From the NCBI RefSeq assembly GCF_045037415.1, contig NZ_CP173438.1: a DNA stretch of 64,000 nucleotides; one strand, 5' to 3'. The DNA comes from Escherichia coli. GTDB lineage: Bacteria > Pseudomonadota > Gammaproteobacteria > Enterobacterales > Enterobacteriaceae. Below the pieces are notes generated by a model. The model ran no database searches. It was not told where the DNA came from and worked only from the letters and a program-made list of their open reading frames with translations. A program made the position numbers and the translations under genes. Below are positions 3,651 to 51,896 of this stretch, in pieces. Position 1 is the stretch's first letter. Every line of letters starts with the position of its first letter.

Positions 3651-5933
3651 ATGTCCGAGCTTAATGAAAAGTTAGCCACAGCCTGGGAAGGTTTTACCAA
3701 AGGTGACTGGCAGAATGAAGTAAACGTCCGTGACTTCATTCAGAAAAACTACACTCCGTACGAGGGTGACGAGTCCTTCCTGGCTGGCGCTACTGAAGCG
3801 ACCACCACCCTGTGGGACAAAGTAATGGAAGGCGTTAAACTGGAAAACCGCACTCACGCGCCAGTTGACTTTGACACCGCTGTTGCTTCCACCATCACCT
3901 CTCACGACGCTGGTTACATCAACAAGCAGCTTGAGAAAATCGTTGGTCTGCAGACTGAAGCTCCGCTGAAACGTGCTCTTATCCCGTTCGGTGGTATCAA
4001 AATGATCGAAGGTTCCTGCAAAGCGTACAACCGCGAACTGGACCCGATGATCAAAAAAATCTTCACTGAATACCGTAAAACTCACAACCAGGGCGTGTTC
4101 GACGTTTACACTCCGGACATCCTGCGTTGCCGTAAATCCGGTGTTCTGACCGGTCTGCCAGATGCTTATGGCCGTGGTCGTATCATCGGTGACTACCGTC
4201 GCGTTGCACTGTACGGTATCGACTACCTGATGAAAGACAAACTTGCACAGTTCACCTCTCTGCAGGCTGATCTGGAAAACGGCGTAAACCTGGAACAGAC
4301 TATCCGTCTGCGCGAAGAAATCGCTGAACAGCACCGCGCTCTGGGTCAGATGAAAGAAATGGCTGCGAAATACGGCTACGACATCTCTGGTCCGGCTACT
4401 AACGCTCAGGAAGCTATCCAGTGGACTTACTTCGGCTACCTGGCTGCTGTTAAGTCTCAGAACGGTGCTGCAATGTCCTTCGGTCGTACCTCCACCTTCC
4501 TGGATGTGTACATCGAACGTGACCTGAAAGCTGGCAAGATCACCGAACAAGAAGCGCAGGAAATGGTTGACCACCTGGTCATGAAACTGCGTATGGTTCG
4601 CTTCCTGCGTACTCCGGAATACGATGAACTGTTCTCTGGCGACCCGATCTGGGCAACCGAATCTATCGGTGGTATGGGCCTCGACGGTCGTACCCTGGTT
4701 ACCAAAAACAGCTTCCGTTTCCTGAACACCCTGTACACCATGGGTCCGTCTCCGGAACCGAACATGACCATTCTGTGGTCTGAAAAACTGCCGCTGAACT
4801 TCAAGAAATTCGCCGCTAAAGTGTCCATCGACACCTCTTCTCTGCAGTATGAGAACGATGACCTGATGCGTCCGGACTTCAACAACGATGACTACGCTAT
4901 TGCTTGCTGCGTAAGCCCGATGATCGTTGGTAAACAAATGCAGTTCTTCGGTGCGCGTGCAAACCTGGCGAAAACCATGCTGTACGCAATCAACGGTGGC
5001 GTTGACGAAAAACTGAAAATGCAGGTTGGTCCGAAATCTGAGCCGATCAAAGGCGATGTCCTGAACTATGATGAAGTGATGGAGCGCATGGATCACTTCA
5101 TGGACTGGCTGGCTAAACAGTACATCACTGCACTGAACATCATCCACTACATGCACGACAAGTACAGCTACGAAGCCTCTCTGATGGCGCTGCACGACCG
5201 TGACGTTATCCGCACCATGGCGTGTGGTATCGCTGGTCTGTCCGTTGCTGCTGACTCCCTGTCTGCAATCAAATATGCGAAAGTTAAACCGATTCGTGAT
5301 GAAGACGGTCTGGCTATCGACTTCGAAATCGAAGGCGAATACCCGCAGTTTGGTAACAACGATCCGCGTGTAGATGACCTGGCTGTTGACCTGGTAGAAC
5401 GTTTCATGAAGAAAATTCAGAAACTGCACACCTACCGTGACGCTATCCCGACTCAGTCTGTTCTGACCATCACTTCTAACGTTGTGTATGGTAAGAAAAC
5501 TGGTAACACCCCAGACGGTCGTCGTGCTGGCGCGCCGTTCGGACCGGGTGCTAACCCGATGCACGGTCGTGACCAGAAAGGTGCTGTAGCGTCTCTGACT
5601 TCCGTTGCTAAACTGCCGTTTGCTTACGCTAAAGATGGTATCTCCTACACCTTCTCTATCGTTCCGAACGCACTGGGTAAAGACGACGAAGTTCGTAAGA
5701 CCAACCTGGCTGGTCTGATGGATGGTTACTTCCACCACGAAGCATCCATCGAAGGTGGTCAGCACCTGAACGTTAACGTGATGAACCGTGAAATGCTGCT
5801 CGACGCGATGGAAAACCCGGAAAAATATCCGCAGCTGACCATCCGTGTATCTGGCTACGCAGTACGTTTCAACTCGCTGACTAAAGAACAGCAGCAGGAC
5901 GTTATTACTCGTACCTTCACTCAATCTATGTAA
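3651..5933 (+). CDS. pflB: Pyruvate formate-lyase (formate C-acetyltransferase)
   Basis: 760-aa ORF; glycyl-radical region RVSGYAVRF near the C-terminus; RBS aagaaggtagg upstream. Confidence 0.95.
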
Positions 5934-13219: not shown

Positions 13220-13239
13220 AAAGCGCCCGCAGGCGCTTT
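13220..13239. repeat. attL core (20-bp direct repeat aaagcgcccgcaggcgcttt)
   Basis: Exact copy of the sequence at 51877..51896; contains the gcgcccgcaggcgc terminator palindrome. Confidence 0.8.
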
Positions 13240-13322: not shown

Positions 13323-14315
13323 CTAATCGATGGACAGTTTATGGACACTTTCAGCCAGCGGATTAAAGTTGATCGCGTCCAGTAAAAAGTCCGGCGAAAA
13401 ATGAGCGTACGTCATTGTTTGCTGAATCGTTGCGTGCCCCAGGATTCGTTGCAACGTAACAATATTTCCGCCATTCATCATAAAGTGTGTGGCAAATGTA
13501 TGACGCATGACATGCGTAGCCTGCCCCTTCGGCAAATCCGGTTTCACCTCCTGAAGAATCTCCCGGAACTTCAGATAATCAACCTGATACAATAACCCCG
13601 TTCGACGGGTTTTAATCAGAGGCACGACCGAATCCGCCACAGGAACCGAACGGGATTTTCCGTTTTTGGTGTTAAAGAACGTCACCCGGTTGCCAACGAT
13701 ATGCTCTCCACGTAGTTCCGATGCTTCACTCCATCGGGCACCAGTAGAAAGACACAGAATGGCAACACGACGCACATCACCCTCCAGTCGCTCAAGAAGC
13801 CGTTCAATCTCATCATCAGAAAGAAAGGCCATCTCTGTGTTCTGAACTTTCAGTTTTCGTATACCGCGTACAGGGTTCGCGTTGTGAAAGACCTCAGCTT
13901 CAATCAGCACCGTGAACATGGTAGACAGTACGCATAAGTCACGATTAATACTGGACGGCATTAATCCGGCCTGTAATTTCTCTGACCGATATTCAAGCAT
14001 AAATTTTCGCGTCATCTGACTGGCGCGAGGATCTCCCATTTCACGAACAACCTTCCCTAGCCTAACCCTGTAGCTATCCCCGTAAGCCTGATTACGCCCA
14101 TCAAGCATCCACCACGCATCAAGCAGCTCTGATAATCGCCGCTGATCAGCTGGCTTAGCCTGCCATGGCTTGTCATGAAAGTTCTGTAACACATACTTCT
14201 CAAACTCCTGAGCCTTTGATTTCAGGGCAAAGATTTTTCGAATCCGCTTTCCTTCCGCCCCCTGCGGTCTGACATCGACCTGATAACGTCCGTCTTTGAG
14301 TTGCTTAATCGACAT
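13323..14315 (-). CDS. int: P2-type tyrosine integrase
   Basis: ORF 13323..14330 trimmed to MSIKQLKDGRYQVDVRP...; closely parallels the recalled P2 Int (MAIKKLDDGRYEVDIRP...), with ILCLSTGARW, HVMRHTFATHF and LGHATIQQTMTYAHF catalytic motifs. Confidence 0.9.
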   Translation of the reverse strand: MSIKQLKDGRYQVDVRPQGAEGKRIRKIFALKSKAQEFEKYVLQNFHDKPWQAKPADQRRLSELLDAWWMLDGRNQAYGDSYRVRLGKVVREMGDPRASQMTRKFMLEYRSEKLQAGLMPSSINRDLCVLSTMFTVLIEAEVFHNANPVRGIRKLKVQNTEMAFLSDDEIERLLERLEGDVRRVAILCLSTGARWSEASELRGEHIVGNRVTFFNTKNGKSRSVPVADSVVPLIKTRRTGLLYQVDYLKFREILQEVKPDLPKGQATHVMRHTFATHFMMNGGNIVTLQRILGHATIQQTMTYAHFSPDFLLDAINFNPLAESVHKLSID

Positions 14316-14384
14316 GATTAGCCCCTCCAACGGATAAATTAACTAAACACTCCTTGCGATATGTAATTCGCTCAATGTGTAGAG

Positions 14385-19405: not shown

Positions 19406-22228
19406 ATGACGGCAGAGTACCTCAGGGACTGGCAACAACCGCGCCACGCAGTGGGGCGTGAAGGAACGGGGATCCCCGCTCCTGAATCCGCGCTTTCCTC
19501 CTGGCTGGATGCCTACCGGGCAGAGAACGAGCGCCGCCAGGAAATGGCTGATGCGGCGTTCTCAGCCACGCCGCTGGGCAACCTGATTAATAAAAGCCTG
19601 GACGCACAGGAAAAACAGGACAAAACCATCACACTGGCAGGAGACGCCAGAAAACAGGCACGTGGCGCGGTGGATGAAGCCATGGCCTCGCTGCGCCTGC
19701 TGCCGTCCTATCTGCGCGATCCGCTTATTCGCCACCTCTCCTTCCTGCGCAAAAAACAGGAAGCCGATCGCCGGAAAGGCAAAAAGAGCTGGCAGGCGGA
19801 ACGCTATGCACGCGGAACCCTGCGCAAAATATTCGAACGTCTGGATAGCACTGACGGACGCTGGCTGACACCGGGTTATCGCTCCCTTGCCGGACGCGAA
19901 CGCCTGGACGATTTGCTTTACCTGCCGCAGCTCAACAAACACCAGATACAGACGCTGGCCACCATGACGGCGGCGATGTTCAGCAGCACCTTCGAAAAAC
20001 TCTGCGATGGCTTTGGCGCGACCGATGGCGAGCTGACCATGGATGTAACCCTGAAGGCGTATCAGATGCTGGCCCGCATGGCGTTACACCTGCACGCCAT
20101 GCCTCCACATTATGACGCACTGACAACAGACAAAGACCGGAGGAACGAACCGGACACGGAGCTGCTGCCGGGCGCAATCCTTCGCCTGACCTGTGCGGAA
20201 TGGTGGAAACGCAAACTGTGGCTGTTACGTTGCGAGTGGAGAGAAGAACAACTCCGCGCCGCCTGTCTGGTTTCCAGAAAAACATCACCCTATCTGAGCC
20301 AGGACGCGTTAAGCGAGTTTCGCGCACAGCGCGAGAAAACACGCGATTTCCTGAAAAGTTTCATGCTGGAAAATGAAGACGGGTTCACGATTGATCTCGA
20401 GACAGTGTATTACGCGGGAGTAAGTAACCCGGTTCACCGTAAGGCAGAAATGATGGCCACCATGAAGGGACTGGAACTTCTGGCCGAAGCCCGTGGCGAC
20501 AAAGCGGTGTTTCTGACTGTCACCTGCCCGTCAAAATACCACGCCACAACGGAGAACGGTCATCCGAATCCCAAATGGAACGGGGCCACAATGCGCGACT
20601 CCAGCGATTACCTGGTTAACACGTTTTTTGCGGCGGTCCGCAAAAAACTGAACCGCGACGGCCTGCGCTGGTATGGCATCCGCACGGTGGAGCCTCATCA
20701 TGACGGCACCGTGCACTGGCATATGATGGTCTTTGCACATCCGGAAGAAATCGACACCATTGTGTCCCATACCCGCGATATTGCCATTCAGGAAGACCGC
20801 CACGAGCTGGGCAATGATATTACTCCGCGCTTTAAGGTGGAGTATGTCGACGGCTCAAAAGGCACGCCAACCAGCTACATCGCCACCTACATCGGAAAGA
20901 ACCTGGACAGCCGCGCCGTGGATGGCATCGACCCGAAAACGGGCAAGCCACGCGTGGACCACGAAACCGGAAAATCAATGGCCGAGAGCGTGGAGCGCGC
21001 CATCGGCTGGGCGCGCCTTCACCGGGTCCGTCAGTTCCAGTTCTTTGGCATCCCCTCCCGTCAGGTGTGGCGTGAACTGCGCCGCCTTGCCAGCCAGATG
21101 GCACGCAATCCGGAAGGCCCGCAACGGCTGAAAGATGATGCAATGGATGCGGTACTCGCTGCCGCCGATGCCGGGTGTTTTGCCACCTACATTGAAAAAC
21201 AGGGTGGCGTGCTTGTTCCACGCAAGGACTACCTGATTCGCACCGCCTACGACCTCGCAGATGAGCTGAACGATTACGGCGAACAGAGCGTACAGATTTA
21301 CGGGATCTGGTCACCACTCATCGGGGAATCCTCCCGTGTGTGCACGCATCCGGATAACTGGAAGCTGGTAAGACGTAAACCGGAAGCGGAAGACAGCGCC
21401 CGCGAAAATGGTTTTGACCTTCAGGGCGGCCCTGCCGCCCCTTGGACTCGTGGCAATAACTGTCCCCGTGTACAGGAAACGGACAACAACGGGACAGAAC
21501 AGCCGGAAGAACGGCCAGCACCGTGGCCGCAGCTCCCTGACGGCGTTGAAGTGAACGAATGGATGCGCTCACTGAAACGACACGAACGCCGGGCGCTGAT
21601 GCGTTCGCTTCGTGACAAACAGGCAAAAAACAGCAGCGATGAAATGCAGAGCTGGACACAGAGCCGCAAACAGCAGCGGCCTTTGCCTGATAACCACGAA
21701 TTACTCGCTAAAGAATGGCGGGAGTCTGCTGAATCTCTCGGCCTGCATATCGGTGAACAACAGATGCAGCACCTGTTACGGGGCGGCAGTCTGTACGTTG
21801 ACGGCAGCATCATTGCACCGCAGGGATTTGAAATTGTACGCAAACCGGATACCCGCCCGGACAGCCGAATCACGCAGCTCTGGCAGCGCCTGAGCCGTAA
21901 TCATGGCGTAAGCAGCACGGAGATCCGCCATAACCCGGTCGCCAGCTATCTGGCACAGCTGGGGGCATCAGACCCTGAAGCCGCCGCACGCCTGGCATCC
22001 ACACTTCAGCAGGGCCAGAACACCATGAAAACACCCGTTACCGTGCTTTCTGACATGCTGCGCGCCATCCGCGACGCAGAGCACGCACAGAGAATCAGTG
22101 AAACCACTGAACGCGCCAGCCGCAAAGCAGACCTGCTGCGGGGTGGCCTGACCAGTGGAAACAAAAAACAGACAGAAACGGGACTTACGAATCCCGTAAA
22201 TGAGCAAAAAACGCGCAGCGATATATGA
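19406..22228 (+). CDS. P2 gpA-type rolling-circle replication initiation endonuclease
   Basis: 940 aa; HxH metal motif in TVEPHHDGTVHWHMMVFAHPEE, typical of gpA/gene II Rep proteins; longer than P2 A as I recall it (about 760 aa). Confidence 0.8.
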   Translation: MTAEYLRDWQQPRHAVGREGTGIPAPESALSSWLDAYRAENERRQEMADAAFSATPLGNLINKSLDAQEKQDKTITLAGDARKQARGAVDEAMASLRLLPSYLRDPLIRHLSFLRKKQEADRRKGKKSWQAERYARGTLRKIFERLDSTDGRWLTPGYRSLAGRERLDDLLYLPQLNKHQIQTLATMTAAMFSSTFEKLCDGFGATDGELTMDVTLKAYQMLARMALHLHAMPPHYDALTTDKDRRNEPDTELLPGAILRLTCAEWWKRKLWLLRCEWREEQLRAACLVSRKTSPYLSQDALSEFRAQREKTRDFLKSFMLENEDGFTIDLETVYYAGVSNPVHRKAEMMATMKGLELLAEARGDKAVFLTVTCPSKYHATTENGHPNPKWNGATMRDSSDYLVNTFFAAVRKKLNRDGLRWYGIRTVEPHHDGTVHWHMMVFAHPEEIDTIVSHTRDIAIQEDRHELGNDITPRFKVEYVDGSKGTPTSYIATYIGKNLDSRAVDGIDPKTGKPRVDHETGKSMAESVERAIGWARLHRVRQFQFFGIPSRQVWRELRRLASQMARNPEGPQRLKDDAMDAVLAAADAGCFATYIEKQGGVLVPRKDYLIRTAYDLADELNDYGEQSVQIYGIWSPLIGESSRVCTHPDNWKLVRRKPEAEDSARENGFDLQGGPAAPWTRGNNCPRVQETDNNGTEQPEERPAPWPQLPDGVEVNEWMRSLKRHERRALMRSLRDKQAKNSSDEMQSWTQSRKQQRPLPDNHELLAKEWRESAESLGLHIGEQQMQHLLRGGSLYVDGSIIAPQGFEIVRKPDTRPDSRITQLWQRLSRNHGVSSTEIRHNPVASYLAQLGASDPEAAARLASTLQQGQNTMKTPVTVLSDMLRAIRDAEHAQRISETTERASRKADLLRGGLTSGNKKQTETGLTNPVNEQKTRSDI

Positions 22229-22270
22229 AGCGCGCACAAAACAGGCAAAAACGGGATTTCAGAATCCCGT
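22178..22270. repeat. Two 20-bp palindromic direct repeats (acgggaYttMMgaatcccgt) spanning the gene A stop, upstream of parM
   Basis: acgggacttacgaatcccgt at 22178..22197 and acgggatttcagaatcccgt at 22251..22270, each within a conserved ~27-bp context. Confidence 0.5.
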
Positions 22271-22304
22271 AAACGATTAATTAATCAACATAAGGAAAAG
22301 CGAC

Positions 22305-23264
22305 ATGAAAATTTGTATCGACGACGGCTCCACCAACATCAAGCTGGCATGGACTGAGAATGGCGAACGCCGCAACGCCATCAGCCCGAACAGCTTCAAG
22401 TCGGAATGGTCTGCGCCGTTCGGTGGCATGCAGCCCGCGAACTACATGCTTGATGGCGTGCGCTATGGTTTTGATCCGGTTAGCGATCGCTTTGTCCAGA
22501 CGACCGACACGCAATACCAGTACAGCGATGTGAATGTAATCGCCATTCATCACGCGCTGGTCAAATCAGGCATCACGCCACAGGAGGTGGATGTGGTTGT
22601 CACCCTGCCACTGAGCGAGTATTTCGACACAAACGCACAGCCGGACATGGCCAACATCAACCGCAAAAAAGCGAACGTTATGCGCCCGGTGGAATACCAG
22701 AACGGCGAAGCATTCACTATCCGTAACGTGCGGGTTATGCCTGAATCCATTCCGGCTGGCTTTAAAGCACTGGCTGACATGAGTCCGTTTGAATCCCTGC
22801 TGATTGTGGATTTAGGCGGAACCACGCTGGATGTGGCAAAGGTTCAAGGGCAACTGGCAGGTATCAGCCAGGTGTTTTGCGATCCACACGTAGGCGTTTC
22901 CCTGATGGCCGATGCCGTACTGTCGGTGATGGCCACTAACGGTATGCGCACCAGTCACCACATCGCCAATACCATTATCGAACATCGCCATGATGAAGCC
23001 TGGCTGCGCCAGCACATCCACAATGACGCGCATTACGCCAGCCTGATGGCGGTTATTCGTGAAAAGGAAGAAACACTGAAACAACGCGTGATCCGCTCGC
23101 TGGCGGTTTTTTCGGGTTACGGGCGGGTGATGGTTGTCGGTGGAGGGGCGGAGATTGTGGCACCCGCTATCCGCGAAGTCTGCGGAGTTAATGCGACTTT
23201 CATCGCGGACGGGGTGCCACAGTTTGCTCTGGTTAATGGGCTGTACGCAATGGACAAGGAGTAA
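22305..23264 (+). CDS. ParM/StbA-like actin-family partition ATPase
   Basis: MKICIDDGSTNIKLAW...ISPNSFKSEW...YSDVNVIAIHHAL...VVGGGAEI parallels recalled plasmid R1 ParM (MLVFIDDGSTNIKLQW...ISPNSFKREW...YSDVNVVAVHHAL...). Confidence 0.8.
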   Translation: MKICIDDGSTNIKLAWTENGERRNAISPNSFKSEWSAPFGGMQPANYMLDGVRYGFDPVSDRFVQTTDTQYQYSDVNVIAIHHALVKSGITPQEVDVVVTLPLSEYFDTNAQPDMANINRKKANVMRPVEYQNGEAFTIRNVRVMPESIPAGFKALADMSPFESLLIVDLGGTTLDVAKVQGQLAGISQVFCDPHVGVSLMADAVLSVMATNGMRTSHHIANTIIEHRHDEAWLRQHIHNDAHYASLMAVIREKEETLKQRVIRSLAVFSGYGRVMVVGGGAEIVAPAIREVCGVNATFIADGVPQFALVNGLYAMDKE

Positions 23265-23268
23265 ACCA

Positions 23269-23583
23269 ATGACGACACCAACCAGACGGATAAGTTTCTA
23301 TCTGAAGCCCGCCGCCGTCAAGAGTGAACAGGAGGCGTGCAATTACCTCGATAGCCTGCCAGCCTCCGAACGCAGCCGCGCGCAACGCGCGGCCTTTCTG
23401 GCTGGGCTAGCGCTCATAAAGCGCAACCCAGCATTTGCCTACTGGATGGCCGAATGGCCAGAGGACAACCTCCCCTTCAATACCGTTAGCATCAAGGAAA
23501 CATACCAGGATAATCAGCCTAGCGGAGTTGAATGCAATTTTTATAAAATAAAAAAGAATATTCAGACCTTATTCCCAGAATAA
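23269..23583 (+). CDS. ParR-like centromere-binding protein
   Basis: MTTPTRRISFYLKPAAV...LDSLPASERSRAQRAAFLAGLAL parallels recalled R1 ParR (RTIAFKLNPDV...LDSIPQGERSRLNRAALTAGLAL); directly follows the parM-like gene. Confidence 0.65.
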   Translation: MTTPTRRISFYLKPAAVKSEQEACNYLDSLPASERSRAQRAAFLAGLALIKRNPAFAYWMAEWPEDNLPFNTVSIKETYQDNQPSGVECNFYKIKKNIQTLFPE

Positions 23584-23666
23584 TCTGATAATTGTATGTG
23601 AACTAATAAAATACAGACCAACACATCATTCTGGCACCCTTGCTAACAGGGTGCCAATGTTTCAAA

Positions 23667-24509
23667 TCATGATGAAATTGCCGAAGTTTTTTTATCGTGC
23701 TGAAGTACCGCAAATGCCATTAAAACCTCAAGAGAATAGCGGCGATAATACTTAACAAAACCATAATAAAATACTCGGGATGCAGCAATACAAAACAAGA
23801 GAAGAAAACAAAAAGGTAACAGTCTGATATTTATATCTATTAAAAAGGATAGAAGGAGCAGGAACATAAGCAACCAGACTGAAGCGAGAAAAACAAATGT
23901 AATGTTTCTACAAAAACCATACAAAGCAACATAGTTTTGCATTTTCACCTGATGATTTTTAGAATGTTCATACACATAATGATAAGCAAGGCGAAAAAGA
24001 TCGCCCCTCAAGCCCTTACGTCGATATAGCGTAGATACAGAAAAAACATTTATATAACCATCTCGTATTTGCGGCCAAAAGACTTTAATAAGTATAGAAT
24101 GCAGTGTGGTTTTATGATGTTCTGCTTTATCAAAAGCTGATACAGGAAATAAAAAAACTCCACGAATAAAATTAACTATACTGAACTTAGTATTATGTCG
24201 TTTTATTTTCAGGGAGCTTCTTTTAGAAAACAGATAAATTGAAGGATACCCAAGTTTACTGTTCATGTATTTTTCAATTAAACAGGATGATAGAATAGAT
24301 ATGAAGTGACCTGAAATATATGATAGAACGATTAATACCACATATATAAATACACTTATTATTTCTTTATATTTCAGGATATGGTTAAGAATACCTTCTA
24401 TATAAACAGGGTTAATTTCAATAGAAAACAAAAAAAGGATAAACAGGAATAACCCACCTGGAATTAGATAGCCCAAAAAGTCATAAAATGAAAACGGATT
24501 CTGTGTCAC
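23667..24509 (-). CDS. Polytopic membrane protein (280 aa, at least 4 TM), unknown function; second gene of the AT-rich cargo operon
   Basis: GTG start with RBS aggggg; two N-terminal and two C-terminal hydrophobic helices around a basic ~130-aa loop; about 32 percent GC by eye. Confidence 0.6.
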   Translation of the reverse strand: MTQNPFSFYDFLGYLIPGGLFLFILFLFSIEINPVYIEGILNHILKYKEIISVFIYVVLIVLSYISGHFISILSSCLIEKYMNSKLGYPSIYLFSKRSSLKIKRHNTKFSIVNFIRGVFLFPVSAFDKAEHHKTTLHSILIKVFWPQIRDGYINVFSVSTLYRRKGLRGDLFRLAYHYVYEHSKNHQVKMQNYVALYGFCRNITFVFLASVWLLMFLLLLSFLIDINIRLLPFCFLLLFCIAASRVFYYGFVKYYRRYSLEVLMAFAVLQHDKKTSAISS

Positions 24510-24548
24510 ACTTCCCCCTGTGTTACTTGTAAATTAAAGGGTAAAACA

Positions 24549-25046
24549 TTATTTGTTTTTCCGTAAAGGATTAGCTTTCCATCTTCTTACTAACCATTCG
24601 AATTCTTGATATGTAGTATCCGAATTAATGCTTTCTCTGATTGCTTTAATTAATGGCTCGGCAATATCATATGTCTCTACAACTGTTGTGTAAGATGTTC
24701 TTTTTATCATTTTTTCATCATAAATACCTTCACGAATACTTACAGCAACTCGCTCGTAAAAATTTAAAATATATTGAAATTTTCGACGCTCGGCCATTTC
24801 TTCATCTGTTATTATGCAACCATCACAAGGAAAAACATAAGAACGAAATGATTTGCCTGAACGATGCACTTGTTTCAGGGTATGCAATGACTCTATATAT
24901 TGCATATCTTGCCGACTCTCAAAAAGAAAGTTGGCCGTTTGAGTTTTTTTTGCGGTACGCACATTGTAGATAATGGTTCCAATGGCAACCAAAACGCCAA
25001 GCAGAACAATAGCATTGCTGATGATTTGTAGTGTTATTGGGTTCAT
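24549..25046 (-). CDS. N-terminally membrane-anchored protein (165 aa), unknown function; first gene of the AT-rich cargo operon
   Basis: MNPITLQIISNAIVLLGVLVAIGTIIYNV (one TM) followed by a ~140-aa charged soluble domain; AT-rich. Confidence 0.6.
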   Translation of the reverse strand: MNPITLQIISNAIVLLGVLVAIGTIIYNVRTAKKTQTANFLFESRQDMQYIESLHTLKQVHRSGKSFRSYVFPCDGCIITDEEMAERRKFQYILNFYERVAVSIREGIYDEKMIKRTSYTTVVETYDIAEPLIKAIRESINSDTTYQEFEWLVRRWKANPLRKNK

Positions 25047-25224: not shown

Positions 25225-25769
25225 ATATATAGGCATGCTTACCTGCACAAAAGTGCACAAATTTGCACAATTTTTTTGAACGACTTTTTACCCTTCCGGC
25301 CCGCATGGCGGCTGGATCCGTCAAGGATCCGTGCGTGCACAAAAAAACGCGCTTTTTCTGCGCGCAGGTGACGGGGGAACAGCCCGCGTTTCAGGGGGTA
25401 AATAGCATTCCCTGAACGATGTCGCAGAGACACAACAGAATGGCCATATTTCTCACGCTGAGCATGAAAAAGGCGTGAGGGCTTTTGATTTGATGGGGTG
25501 AAAGGTAAGGCCGTCAAAATCGCACTGAGGCAGCGAGAACATGCAGTCAACGCGGTGGAATTGCGTAAGAGTCTGACCGTCGATGGTGGCGATAAACTGG
25601 AAGGCGTCGTGAAATTATCTGATTGATACAGGAGCTGGAGAGCCGGGGCATAAATTTTTTATGCCCCGGCGAAGCAGCAGACAAGCGAAGCGCGTCAGCG
25701 ATACGGCACCTTGCCGACCATACTTCATAAGTGCAAAATACGAGCAAAGAAATCAATGGAGGCTGTCTT

Positions 25770-26294
25770 ATGGTCATTAATTACAAGCAGTTAAGAGAAA
25801 AACGGGAGCAGGTAAAGGAGAGCTTTCGCCGCAATGAAGATCTGACCCCGCTTGTACGCCTTGCCCAGGGCATTGTTGATGCTTATGAAATCTCGCTGGA
25901 GCTGCCATCACAGACCTGGACAGATAGCGACGGTAATCGCCAGCATTACGTTTCATGCGGACTGGAAGCAGCCGAAGGATTTCGCAGAATGCCTTTATCC
26001 CAGATCCCTGCCGCTACCCCCAAAGCACGGGGCAGCAATGATGAGCGAAAACTGACTTTTAGTATTGAAACGGTGGTTGACGACACACCTGGCGAAGTCG
26101 CGTTCGTGCACACTCCTGTTTCGATCGCAATGTATAACGATGAAATACAGGTTCGCGTTAATAATAATATCGTGCCACTTAAAGAAGGTAATTCACCCTA
26201 CACCACCGTTTGTGAAGCCATTCAATATTACGTTCTCTCTGAAATTGATAATCTCAAGCCTGACGGCACCCAGAAAATGGTTCAACTCTGGTAA
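25770..26294 (+). CDS. Hypothetical protein (174 aa), convergent on the portal gene
   Basis: ATG 25770 with RBS ggagg; MVINYKQLREKREQVKESFRRNEDLTPLVRLAQGIVDAYE...; no motif recognised. Confidence 0.45.
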   Translation: MVINYKQLREKREQVKESFRRNEDLTPLVRLAQGIVDAYEISLELPSQTWTDSDGNRQHYVSCGLEAAEGFRRMPLSQIPAATPKARGSNDERKLTFSIETVVDDTPGEVAFVHTPVSIAMYNDEIQVRVNNNIVPLKEGNSPYTTVCEAIQYYVLSEIDNLKPDGTQKMVQLW

Positions 26295-33922: not shown

Positions 33923-34064
33923 CCCACCCACATGGGGAAACCTCGGAATATGGGGCGACCGCCTTCTGGATGCACTGGAAACCTGTAACGCGGATAAACG
34001 GGCCATTGCTGAACTGGATAAGAGAATAGCCGAACTGACACACCAGACGGGAGTAACACAATGA
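33783..34064 (+). CDS. Rz1-like o-spanin lipoprotein (LysC-like), overlapping the Rz frame
   Basis: Lipobox LLTGC in MNAPTLCLTLVLLTGCAGT; Pro-rich mature part; begins inside Rz in another frame. Confidence 0.6.
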   Translation: MNAPTLCLTLVLLTGCAGTQNAPGPAPSVRLIPQTLTMPVTPPPFPDPPTWGNLGIWGDRLLDALETCNADKRAIAELDKRIAELTHQTGVTQ

Positions 34065-35938
34065 CCAGTAAGAACTTTGCACTGATTACAGCCATGACAC
34101 AGGCTGAACTGACTCAAAAGGTGAATGAACATCTTGCGAAAGGGTGGCATCTTCAGGGGGAGACGCGGGTTGCCTACGAACCCGGCACCCCGTGGTATCT
34201 AATGCAGGCAATGGTGGCCGATGGCACTACAGACATCTCACCTGATTCCCCCCAGCACGGCAGCGTGCCGGAGTGGTATTACGTGGTGGTACTTGCTGGT
34301 CAATCCAATGCCATGTCATATGGTGAGGGAATGCCGCTGCCGGATTCTTACGATGCGCCCCACCCACGCATTAAGCAACTGGCCCGTCGCAACACAGTGA
34401 CTCCCGGTGGTAAAGCATGCGCATTTAACGACATCATTCCGGCAGACCACTGCCTGCATGATGTTCAGGATATGAGCGCACTGAATCACCCGAATGCAGA
34501 CCTGAGCAAAGGGCAGTATGGCTGTGTCGGACAGGGCTTGCATATTGCCAAACGCCTGTTGCCTTACATTCCACAGAATGCCGGGATTTTACTGGTTCCA
34601 TGCTGTCGTGGTGGTTCGGCATTCACCCAGGGCGCGGAGGGGACATTCAGCGAGTCCACAGGAGCCAGTCAGGATTCGGCTCGCTGGGGTGTGGGTAAAC
34701 CTTTATATCAGGACCTGATTTTGCGCACGAAGGCCGCATTGCAGAAAAACCCAAAAAACATGCTGCTGGCCGTATGCTGGATGCAGGGCGAATTTGACAT
34801 GAGCGCCGCTACGTACTCACAGCAACCTCCGCTGTTTACGGCCATGCTGAAACAGTTTCGTGCGGACATTACCGAGTTTAACACGCAGTGTCATGGAGGC
34901 AGAGCGGCAAGTGTGCCATGGATTTGTGGTGACACGACGTATTACTGGAAAAACACCTACGGCACGCAGTACGACACCATTTACGGGGCGTACAAAAACA
35001 GGGAGAGCGACAACGTTTTCTTTGTGCCGTTCCTGACCGATGGTAGTGGCAACAATACCTCCACCAACGCACCAACGGAAGATCCGGATGCTGCAAGTGA
35101 GGGATATTACGGTTCGGCATCCCGAACGAACAAAAACTGGGTATCATCAAATCGCCAGACGCATTTCAGCTCATGGGCGCGTCGTGGCATTATTCCCGAT
35201 CGTATGGCAACCGCTATTCTGAACGTAGCCGGTCGCACCTTAGCCTTCATCAGTGGTAAGGCACCGGAAATCAAACCCTCGCCCGGCGGCGACACGCCAT
35301 CGGGGCCGTCTGAAGATGCATCCGTACGCACAATCTCCCTGTTGCCGACAGCCGGAGATGCTGCTGCGCAGGGCTGGAGCATTAAGAATGGCGGAATTCA
35401 GTTGTCAGAGGGTGTATTTAAGATCACCAAGCAGAGCAATAAAGCCTGGTCCCTGACGCGCCCGGTGGATGACGCAGTCTCCCTGCTGACACGGGGTGGC
35501 AGACTGAGCTGTAAGTTTCGACTGTCAGGCGCACTGACCAACAATCAGTTCGGTCTGGGAATTTATCTGTATACCGATGTAGCGTTACCTGACGTCGTGG
35601 CGATGACCGGGACTGGTAACCCGTTCCTGATGTCGTTCTTCACCCAGACCACAGACGGCAAACTGAATCTGATGCATCACAAGAAAGCAGGAAACACAAA
35701 GTTGGGCGAGTTCGGGAATTACAGTAACGACTGGCAGACGCTGGAGCTGGTGTTCACCGCCGGCAGTGCCACGGTTACTCCGAAACTGAATGGAGTGGCT
35801 GGCCCGGCATTCCAGGTCATAAAAGACAGTCTGACACTGGGGCTGAATGCGCTGACGTTAACTGATATCACTAAAAATGCCGCGTACGGCGTCGATATCG
35901 GCAGCCTGGTGCTGGAAATCAATAATCCCGCAGCATAA
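34061..35938 (+). CDS. NanS-p-like sialate O-acetylesterase (DUF1737 N-domain plus SGNH/SASA esterase domain)
   Basis: 625 aa; N-terminus MTSKNFALITAMTQAELTQKVNEHLAKGWHLQGE resembles the DUF1737 start of prophage NanS-p proteins; GQSNAMSYGEG is the esterase active-site block. Confidence 0.7.
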   Translation: MTSKNFALITAMTQAELTQKVNEHLAKGWHLQGETRVAYEPGTPWYLMQAMVADGTTDISPDSPQHGSVPEWYYVVVLAGQSNAMSYGEGMPLPDSYDAPHPRIKQLARRNTVTPGGKACAFNDIIPADHCLHDVQDMSALNHPNADLSKGQYGCVGQGLHIAKRLLPYIPQNAGILLVPCCRGGSAFTQGAEGTFSESTGASQDSARWGVGKPLYQDLILRTKAALQKNPKNMLLAVCWMQGEFDMSAATYSQQPPLFTAMLKQFRADITEFNTQCHGGRAASVPWICGDTTYYWKNTYGTQYDTIYGAYKNRESDNVFFVPFLTDGSGNNTSTNAPTEDPDAASEGYYGSASRTNKNWVSSNRQTHFSSWARRGIIPDRMATAILNVAGRTLAFISGKAPEIKPSPGGDTPSGPSEDASVRTISLLPTAGDAAAQGWSIKNGGIQLSEGVFKITKQSNKAWSLTRPVDDAVSLLTRGGRLSCKFRLSGALTNNQFGLGIYLYTDVALPDVVAMTGTGNPFLMSFFTQTTDGKLNLMHHKKAGNTKLGEFGNYSNDWQTLELVFTAGSATVTPKLNGVAGPAFQVIKDSLTLGLNALTLTDITKNAAYGVDIGSLVLEINNPAA

Positions 35939-51876: not shown

Positions 51877-51896
51877 AAAGCGCCCGCAGGCGCTTT
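51877..51896. repeat. attR core (20-bp direct repeat), also the serS terminator
   Basis: Exact copy of 13220..13239; lies about 22 bp downstream of the serS stop. Confidence 0.8.

Follow-up and report, generated by a model that had tools for sequence, protein, structure and literature searches.

A probable ParMRC-type segregation cassette with a putative two-palindrome centromere in a P88-like prophage of Escherichia coli

Partition genes downstream from gene A

We analyzed a 64,000-nucleotide stretch of Escherichia coli DNA (contig NZ_CP173438.1 of assembly GCF_045037415.1, hereafter called the window). An integrated prophage in the window carries, directly downstream from its replication gene A, two genes that we call parM and parR, and two palindromic repeats lie upstream from parM (Table 1). 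An earlier reading of the bare letters (the original prediction) had suggested that these elements form an actin-type partition module. The ORF list of the window and the sequence itself give the plus-strand order gene A, parM, parR. The gene A product (gpA) matched its PHROGs family, annotated as "nicking at origin of replication", at 9.5e-275. The stop codon of gene A occupies positions 22226-22228 and is separated from parM by a 76-nt spacer. The parR gene starts with an ATG 4 nt past the parM stop and is preceded by an AAGGAG ribosome-binding site. A longer, TTG-started ORF at 23134 was also proposed for parR by the ORF-listing program, and we rejected it as an artefact of that program.

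Table 1. Positions in the window of the partition genes, the repeats and gene A
Feature	Coordinates	Strand	Description
parM	22305..23264	+	actin-fold partition ATPase, 319 aa
parR	23269..23583	+	StbB-family ribbon-helix-helix adaptor, 104 aa
gene A	19406..22228	+	replication endonuclease, 940 aa, directly 5' of the cassette; phrog_91
repeat unit 1	22162..22203	+	A-rich flank and 20-bp palindrome ACGGGACTTACGAATCCCGT (22178-22197); putative distal ParR site, parC-like
repeat unit 2	22235..22276	+	A-rich flank and perfect 8+4+8 palindrome ACGGGATTTCAGAATCCCGT (22251-22270); putative proximal ParR operator/centromere

We compared the ParM protein with domain, structure, and phage protein collections. 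Pfam covered residues 1-316 with StbA_N (PF06406, 3.7e-82) and the ParM C-domain (PF21523, 2.1e-68), and phmmer aligned residues 2-316 end to end with the R1 ParM structure 1mwk (E = 8e-93). Identity to the StbA protein of R100-type (IncF) plasmids was 47%. The nucleotide-binding motifs DDGSTNIK, MPESIPAG, DLGGTTLD, and GGGAE, which we take to be phosphate 1, the catalytic Glu region, phosphate 2, and the adenosine loop, respectively, were identical or near-identical in the alignments with R1 ParM and StbA. The protein had been said to resemble R1 ParM along its length on the strength of the motifs DDGSTNIKL, ISPNSFKSEW, YSDVNVIAIHHAL, and VGGGAE; all of these motifs are present, and the domain and structure-sequence matches confirm the resemblance. 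Thus, the ATPase falls in the ParM/StbA family and not among sugar kinases or Hsp70-like proteins. In PHROGs, ParM belongs to phrog_691, and both ParM and ParR are filed as "partition protein".

The parM and parR reading frames were intact in every locus that we inspected. Pairwise dN/dS values for parM ranged from 0.04 to 0.12, including for pairs at dS 0.6-0.9. parM is under strong purifying selection.

The downstream gene had been called ParR-like, and this assignment also holds. Its product matched Pfam PF10784 (Plasmid_stab_B, 9.4e-29) over residues 6-75, and a profile of 33 homologues matched the ParR protein (StbB) of pB171 par2 (2jd3) over residues 4-76 with an E-value of 5e-7. The pB171 protein was the only solved structure recovered by sequence, and the match covers its ribbon-helix-helix domain; the pairwise similarity, however, was weak (E = 0.012), and the linker and C-terminus of the two proteins did not align. 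Identity to IncF StbB proteins was 36-41% over the N-terminal 63-73 residues. ParR carries LDSLPASERSRAQRAAFLAGLAL, which aligns with LDSIPQGERSRLNRAALTAGLAL of an IncF StbB, and its N-terminal domain shares the helix LDSxPxxERSRxxRAAxxAGLAL with the StbB of R1/R100.

We then examined which parts of ParR are conserved among 64 full-length alleles. The segment RRISFYLKP, which is expected to be the ribbon beta-strand, was invariant, whereas the rest of the protein varied: the helix-helix region came in two main versions, and a hypervariable stretch or linker extended over residues ~66-93. A C-terminal motif, (K/A)xNIxxxFPE, was kept across the alleles; it recalls the KKN...L motif near the C-terminus of R1/R100 StbB but aligned only loosely with the KKNAMKLIN of IncF StbB. 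An AlphaFold model (mean pLDDT 69.8) predicted helices at residues 14-29, 32-52, and 54-61, followed by a linker of low confidence (76-87) and a last helix at the C-terminus (90-101). In R1 ParR, a flexible linker joins the DNA-binding domain to the tail that binds ParM, and the predicted layout of the phage protein, with its N-terminal DNA-binding domain, fits this known layout. A Foldseek search of the monomer model against the PDB gave no meaningful match, as is to be expected when a ribbon-helix-helix domain, an obligate dimer, is modeled alone.

The cassette has the same order of repeats, parM, and parR as the ParMRC system of R1/R100 (StbA/StbB/parC, IncFII), and its ParM aligns with that of the plasmids from end to end. 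It differs from the plasmid system in being carried by an integrating P2-like phage and in lacking a detected promoter of its own.

Paired palindromes upstream from parM

The original prediction had described two 20-bp palindromes, one of them within the 3' end of gene A, and we recovered both in place. Palindrome 1 falls within the final codons of gene A, while palindrome 2 lies in the spacer between gene A and parM, 35 nt upstream from the parM start. When up to 3 mismatches were allowed, the palindrome pattern matched nowhere else in the 64-kb window (4 strand-matches versus 0.12 expected), and none of 100 shuffled sequences reached 4 matches. The palindromes are embedded in 42-nt direct repeats that are 83% identical and lie 73 nt apart. 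A-tracts were phased at ~10.25 bp, a value that was reached by 14 of 500 shuffles.

We wondered whether these repeats are conserved in related loci. A scan of species-representative genomes with ParM returned three near-identical loci only and no intermediate relatives; diverged loci were obtained via the ParR alleles. In diverged loci with 88-95% identical ParM proteins and different gene A ends, the palindrome core CGGGAYT-N4-AATCCC was invariant and the 4-nt spacer was free to vary. The distance between the starts of the two palindromes was exactly 73 nt in all lineages compared (ParM identity 88-99%). In one locus (L011), the gpA stop codon falls within the spacer of repeat 1, whereas gpA of the window extends 31 nt beyond that repeat. 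The position of the gpA stop thus shifts relative to repeat 1, and coding constraint therefore does not explain why the repeat is conserved.

The arms are conserved and the spacer is free, the spacing is constant at 73 bp, and the beta-strand of ParR is invariant; together, these features make it plausible that the palindromes are a parC-like centromere bound by ParR. Such a centromere would differ from parC of R1, in which some ten A/C-rich direct iterons of 11 bp surround a promoter; the phage has a pair of 20-bp palindromes spaced at 73 bp. The upstream region of the phage is much shorter than the iteron region of an R100-type plasmid and is differently built.

We also considered that the palindromes belong to the replication origin of gpA. 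A P88-like prophage that has no parMR (NZ_CP115358.1) has kept repeat 1 and lost repeat 2, with a breakpoint at 22233/22234. P2 has no such palindromic element, and the P2 ori nick sequence, GCGCCTCGGAGTCCTGTCAA, had no match in the window. The origin reading is unlikely because repeat 2 was lost along with parMR and because P2 has no such palindrome. In NZ_CP115358.1 (positions 5001-5740 of that locus), a frameshifted ead/Ea22-like gene stands in place of parMR, 5 nt past the gpA stop, and a recombination breakpoint falls between the two palindromes.

The host prophage and the distribution of the cassette

The cassette region is 96-99.9% identical at the nucleotide level to phage P88 and to 13 other Peduoviridae records, several of which are classed as Xuanwuvirus. 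The order A-parM-parR-variable genes-portal gene Q was the same in 14 phage records, and the synteny gpA-parM-parR-cargo-portal was kept in all related loci. By these matches, the prophage belongs to the P88-like (Xuanwuvirus) branch of the P2-like phages. It is integrated, with chromosomal genes on both sides: dmsABC lies on the left, and the right-hand ORFs are presumably serS, rarA, lolA, and ftsK, judging from their lengths and the known gene order of E. coli. A 20-bp direct repeat, AAAGCGCCCGCAGGCGCTTT, at 13220-13239 and 51877-51896 represents the att duplication, and the integrase gene lies at 13323..14330. The prophage thus spans ~38.7 kb between serS and dmsA. It does not show the features of phage-plasmids of the P1, D6, N15, or SSU5 type, namely an extrachromosomal state, a plasmid replicon, and the absence of integration. 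The attachment core AAAGCGCCCGCAGGCGCTTT is itself a G+C-rich palindrome just downstream from the 430-aa ORF taken as serS, and by its position it may be the serS terminator hairpin.

We searched complete E. coli genomes and collections of phage and plasmid records for the cassette. Of 5426 complete E. coli genomes, 1302 carried parM together with repeat 2, and the hosts of the cassette include O157:H7, O145, O111, and ST131 strains. At a coverage of at least 80%, the P88-type gpA 3' end was present in 1354 genomes and parM in 1278; the cassette is therefore a near-core part of the lineage and not variable cargo. Its GC content (50-57%) is near that of the flanking phage genes (~50-61%), while the cargo that adjoins it downstream has 28-36%. 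Among 50,697 phage records, parM occurred in all 14 P88-like phages and otherwise only in the phage-plasmid D6. D6 is a P1-like phage of 91 kb that is maintained as a plasmid, whereas the phage of the window integrates; its ParM, annotated as an StbA-type plasmid stability protein, is 48% identical to the phage protein over 316 residues.

Among 72,556 plasmid records, no ParM fell between 60% and 95% identity: those above 95% were P88-like copies, and the closest ParM of a true plasmid was 53% identical. A plasmid-prophage ancestry had been suggested for the module, and with so distant a nearest plasmid relative it finds no support as a recent event. These comparisons mark the cassette as an ancient branch of the R1-type family that is specific to phages and has been retained by selection. 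A parM with 98% identity was also found on a 3.7-kb contig (JAIJJM010000298.1) binned to a Collinsella metagenome-assembled genome (MAG), but the contig almost certainly stems from an enterobacterial prophage and contaminates that bin.

The cassette is real but not new: public annotation already covers it in roughly one of every four complete E. coli genomes, and a published paper has commented on it. RefSeq names the products "plasmid segregation protein ParM" and "plasmid partitioning/stability family protein", and GenBank names both genes as well. Rousset et al. (2022) noted a putative partitioning system in roughly one in four P2-like phages and put forward the idea of plasmid maintenance (PMC9122126). 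A paper on the Citrobacter phage phiSM lists the gene as a "fitness" factor, by annotation alone (PMC6456863). In the literature that we searched, there was no experimental study of the P88-type cassette, only annotation-level mentions and the remark in PMC9122126. To this, our analysis adds comparative evidence in favor of a ParR site made of two palindromes, together with the findings that the cassette is near-core, that parM is under strong purifying selection, and that close plasmid relatives are absent.

The original prediction had also called it unexpected for a chromosomally integrated phage to carry a segregation system. This was overstated: among P88-like phages the cassette is near-core, PMC9122126 had already pointed it out, and analogues exist on other integrated elements (PMC4489591, PMC4446434). 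SrpMRC of the SXT/R391 integrative and conjugative elements (ICEs) is a type II partition system that is expressed only around excision and replication and that stabilizes the excised circle (PMC4489591). It is a precedent for a normally chromosomal element that carries a partition system, the same logic that we propose for the phage, and its function was shown experimentally, while the phage cassette is known here from its sequence. SrpMRC differs further in that it is carried by an ICE and not by a phage, SrpM is distant from R1 ParM, and SrpR has no recognizable ParR domain (PMC4489591). The AlpAC/alpS system of the Corynebacterium prophage CGP3 likewise pairs an actin-like filament former with a DNA-binding adaptor that binds upstream repeats, both encoded by an integrated prophage; it is induced early and needed for efficient phage DNA replication (PMC4446434). 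AlpAC, however, belongs to another actin-like family and another host, its adaptor gene comes first, and it has no sequence relationship to the R1-type pair.

Possible roles, alternative explanations and neighboring genes

A scan of the region from gene A to parM detected no sigma-70-like promoter and no plus-strand terminator-like site, from which we infer that parMR is probably co-transcribed with gene A. Taken together, our results lead us to favor, with moderate confidence, the interpretation that the locus is a complete ParMRC-type (type II) cassette for DNA segregation belonging to the R1/StbAB family, that it has long been near-core in P88-like phages, and that it acts on extrachromosomal phage circles. 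ParR dimers would bind the two palindromes upstream from parM through the ribbon-helix-helix beta-strand (RRISFYLKP). ParM filaments, which depend on ATP, would then be caught at their ends by the C-terminal helix of ParR, and their growth would push the ParR-bound DNAs apart. Most likely, parMR would be expressed with the early lytic/replication operon and be silent in the repressed lysogen. Once infection or excision has produced a circular, extrachromosomal phage genome, ParMR would act on it and would distribute or position replicating circles to both daughter cells or to sites of replication and packaging. If it does act on excised or infecting circles, the cassette should affect the efficiency of lysogenization, prophage stability, curing, and possibly carrier states in a very common prophage family.

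More tentatively, the phage may carry its own adapted form of ParMRC, which would have a minimal two-palindrome centromere and be switched on with rolling-circle replication; it would give the phage a plasmid-like carrier phase or spatially organize the replication and packaging of monomeric circles. We regard this more specific proposal as possible, with the balance somewhat against it. If it is true, an R1-type actin system is a working part of the life cycle of a temperate phage and not of a plasmid, and the locus offers a compact two-site centromere to compare with R1 parC.

Several observations weigh against a segregation cassette that acts on phage circles. In complete E. coli genomes, 1440 of the 1442 places where the cassette occurs are chromosomal, and a stable plasmid state is thus rare at best. 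Against the NCBIfam equivalog NF010498 (PRK13917, "plasmid segregation protein ParM"), ParM scored 17.8 bits where the cut-off is 417; NCBIfam gave sub-threshold matches only and no family for ParR or gpA, yet Pfam, the sequence matches to PDB entries, and RefSeq naming all agree on the placement of ParM. The putative centromere is atypical in having two palindromic sites only. Repeat 1 persists in the prophage that has no parMR. Both palindromes fold at ~-10 kcal/mol on either strand, and both fit the pattern of a minus-strand intrinsic terminator. Finally, the binding of ParR to the repeats and the timing of parMR expression are both predicted from the sequence.

The fit to a terminator pattern raises the alternative that the palindromes are minus-strand intrinsic terminators or insulators that keep leftward transcription of hotspot cargo or late genes out of gene A; the ParR site would then lie elsewhere or serve as an operator only. 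On the minus strand, each palindrome reads as an 8-bp stem with a 4-nt loop followed by TTTTTGCC or TTCTGTCT, and the old-tin cargo of P2 is indeed transcribed leftward, toward gene A. The survival of repeat 1 without parMR also suits a terminator. A covariation test meant to tell a hairpin from a protein site gave no information since the 6-bp core never varies, so that there are no compensatory changes on which to decide. At the outermost stem positions, however, A-to-G substitutions in the left arm and G-to-A substitutions in the right arm were uncompensated, and conservation reaches ~16 nt past the stem into the A-rich flank of the 42-nt unit. A pair of terminators would have no need for the exact 73-bp spacing that all lineages share. 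Moreover, sites upstream from parM would leave parMR itself unprotected from antisense transcription, and P2 does without such an element. We thus consider the terminator explanation unlikely.

Similarly improbable, in our view, is that ParMR lets P88-like phages persist as low-copy plasmid prophages (facultative phage-plasmids), for instance in hosts whose attachment site is missing or already taken. This is the idea proposed by Rousset et al. (PMC9122126), and the only other ParM-bearing phage in the collection is a phage-plasmid, D6. In addition, a record in PLSDB (NZ_CP148288.1, strain Z1323PEC0009 from a cat) holds a whole P88-like genome, including the integrase, as a 34.4-kb circular "plasmid", whereas a 100% identical phage (over 12 kb) is chromosomally integrated in a human isolate of the same strain series (NZ_CP148378.1). 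The circle is compatible with a plasmid phase, but an excised phage caught in replication would account for this lone record equally well. The cassette is chromosomal at nearly all of its places, and the integrase and the att sites have been retained. Furthermore, we saw no plasmid-type, copy-controlled replicon, just the rolling-circle initiator gpA.

Far less likely still is that the cassette is hotspot cargo directed against competitors, either through partition incompatibility with IncF-type plasmids and other ParMR phages or as an unrecognized anti-phage system. It does lie within the gpA-gpQ defense hotspot (PMC9122126), beside low-GC cargo, and ParR is highly polymorphic outside the beta-strand. 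This variability, however, is centered on a linker that is predicted to be disordered. Neither ParM nor ParR matched a PADLOC-DB family at E <= 0.01, and the cassette is near-core and not variable, with a GC content like that of the flanking phage genes and unlike that of the cargo. The level of identity between the phage and IncF ParR proteins (just 36-41%) and the seemingly unrelated IncF iterons also argue against incompatibility. That the cassette is a decaying, functionless relic of a plasmid ancestor is the least credible explanation: although an integrated element needs no partition, the selection analysis already contradicts decay, with intact frames, low dN/dS at dS up to 0.9, and conserved catalytic motifs, and the distance to the nearest plasmid ParM implies that the acquisition was ancient and that the genes have been kept since.

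The segregation cassette that we favor is followed by a variable region. A two-gene cassette with 28-36% GC (23667..25046, minus strand) lies right after parR in the gpA-gpQ hotspot. One of its products is a 280-aa hydrophobic and probably membrane protein (phrog_12528) with a weak PADLOC match to Csx27 (1.1e-5), and the other is a 165-aa DUF4760 protein (phrog_2284); the pair is candidate anti-phage cargo that matches no known system. Between parR and the convergent low-GC cargo gene, we noticed a hairpin, GGCACCCT-TGCTAAC-AGGGTGCC, at 23633-23655. It may be a shared transcription stop for both genes, and the terminator scan did not flag it because it has no T-run. In another P88-like locus (L013/L014, 3338-5842), parR is followed by other cargo, with TumE-like, HVO_A0114-like, and YafO-toxin-domain genes, which illustrates that the variable hotspot starts directly after parR. 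In the same variable region of the window, a 187-aa ORF (25731..26294, plus strand; phrog_5091) that had no NCBIfam or PADLOC match adjoins the portal gene. A second accessory slot of the prophage, between the lysis and tail genes, holds a gene for a 625-aa DUF6645 protein (34061..35938, plus strand; phrog_143).

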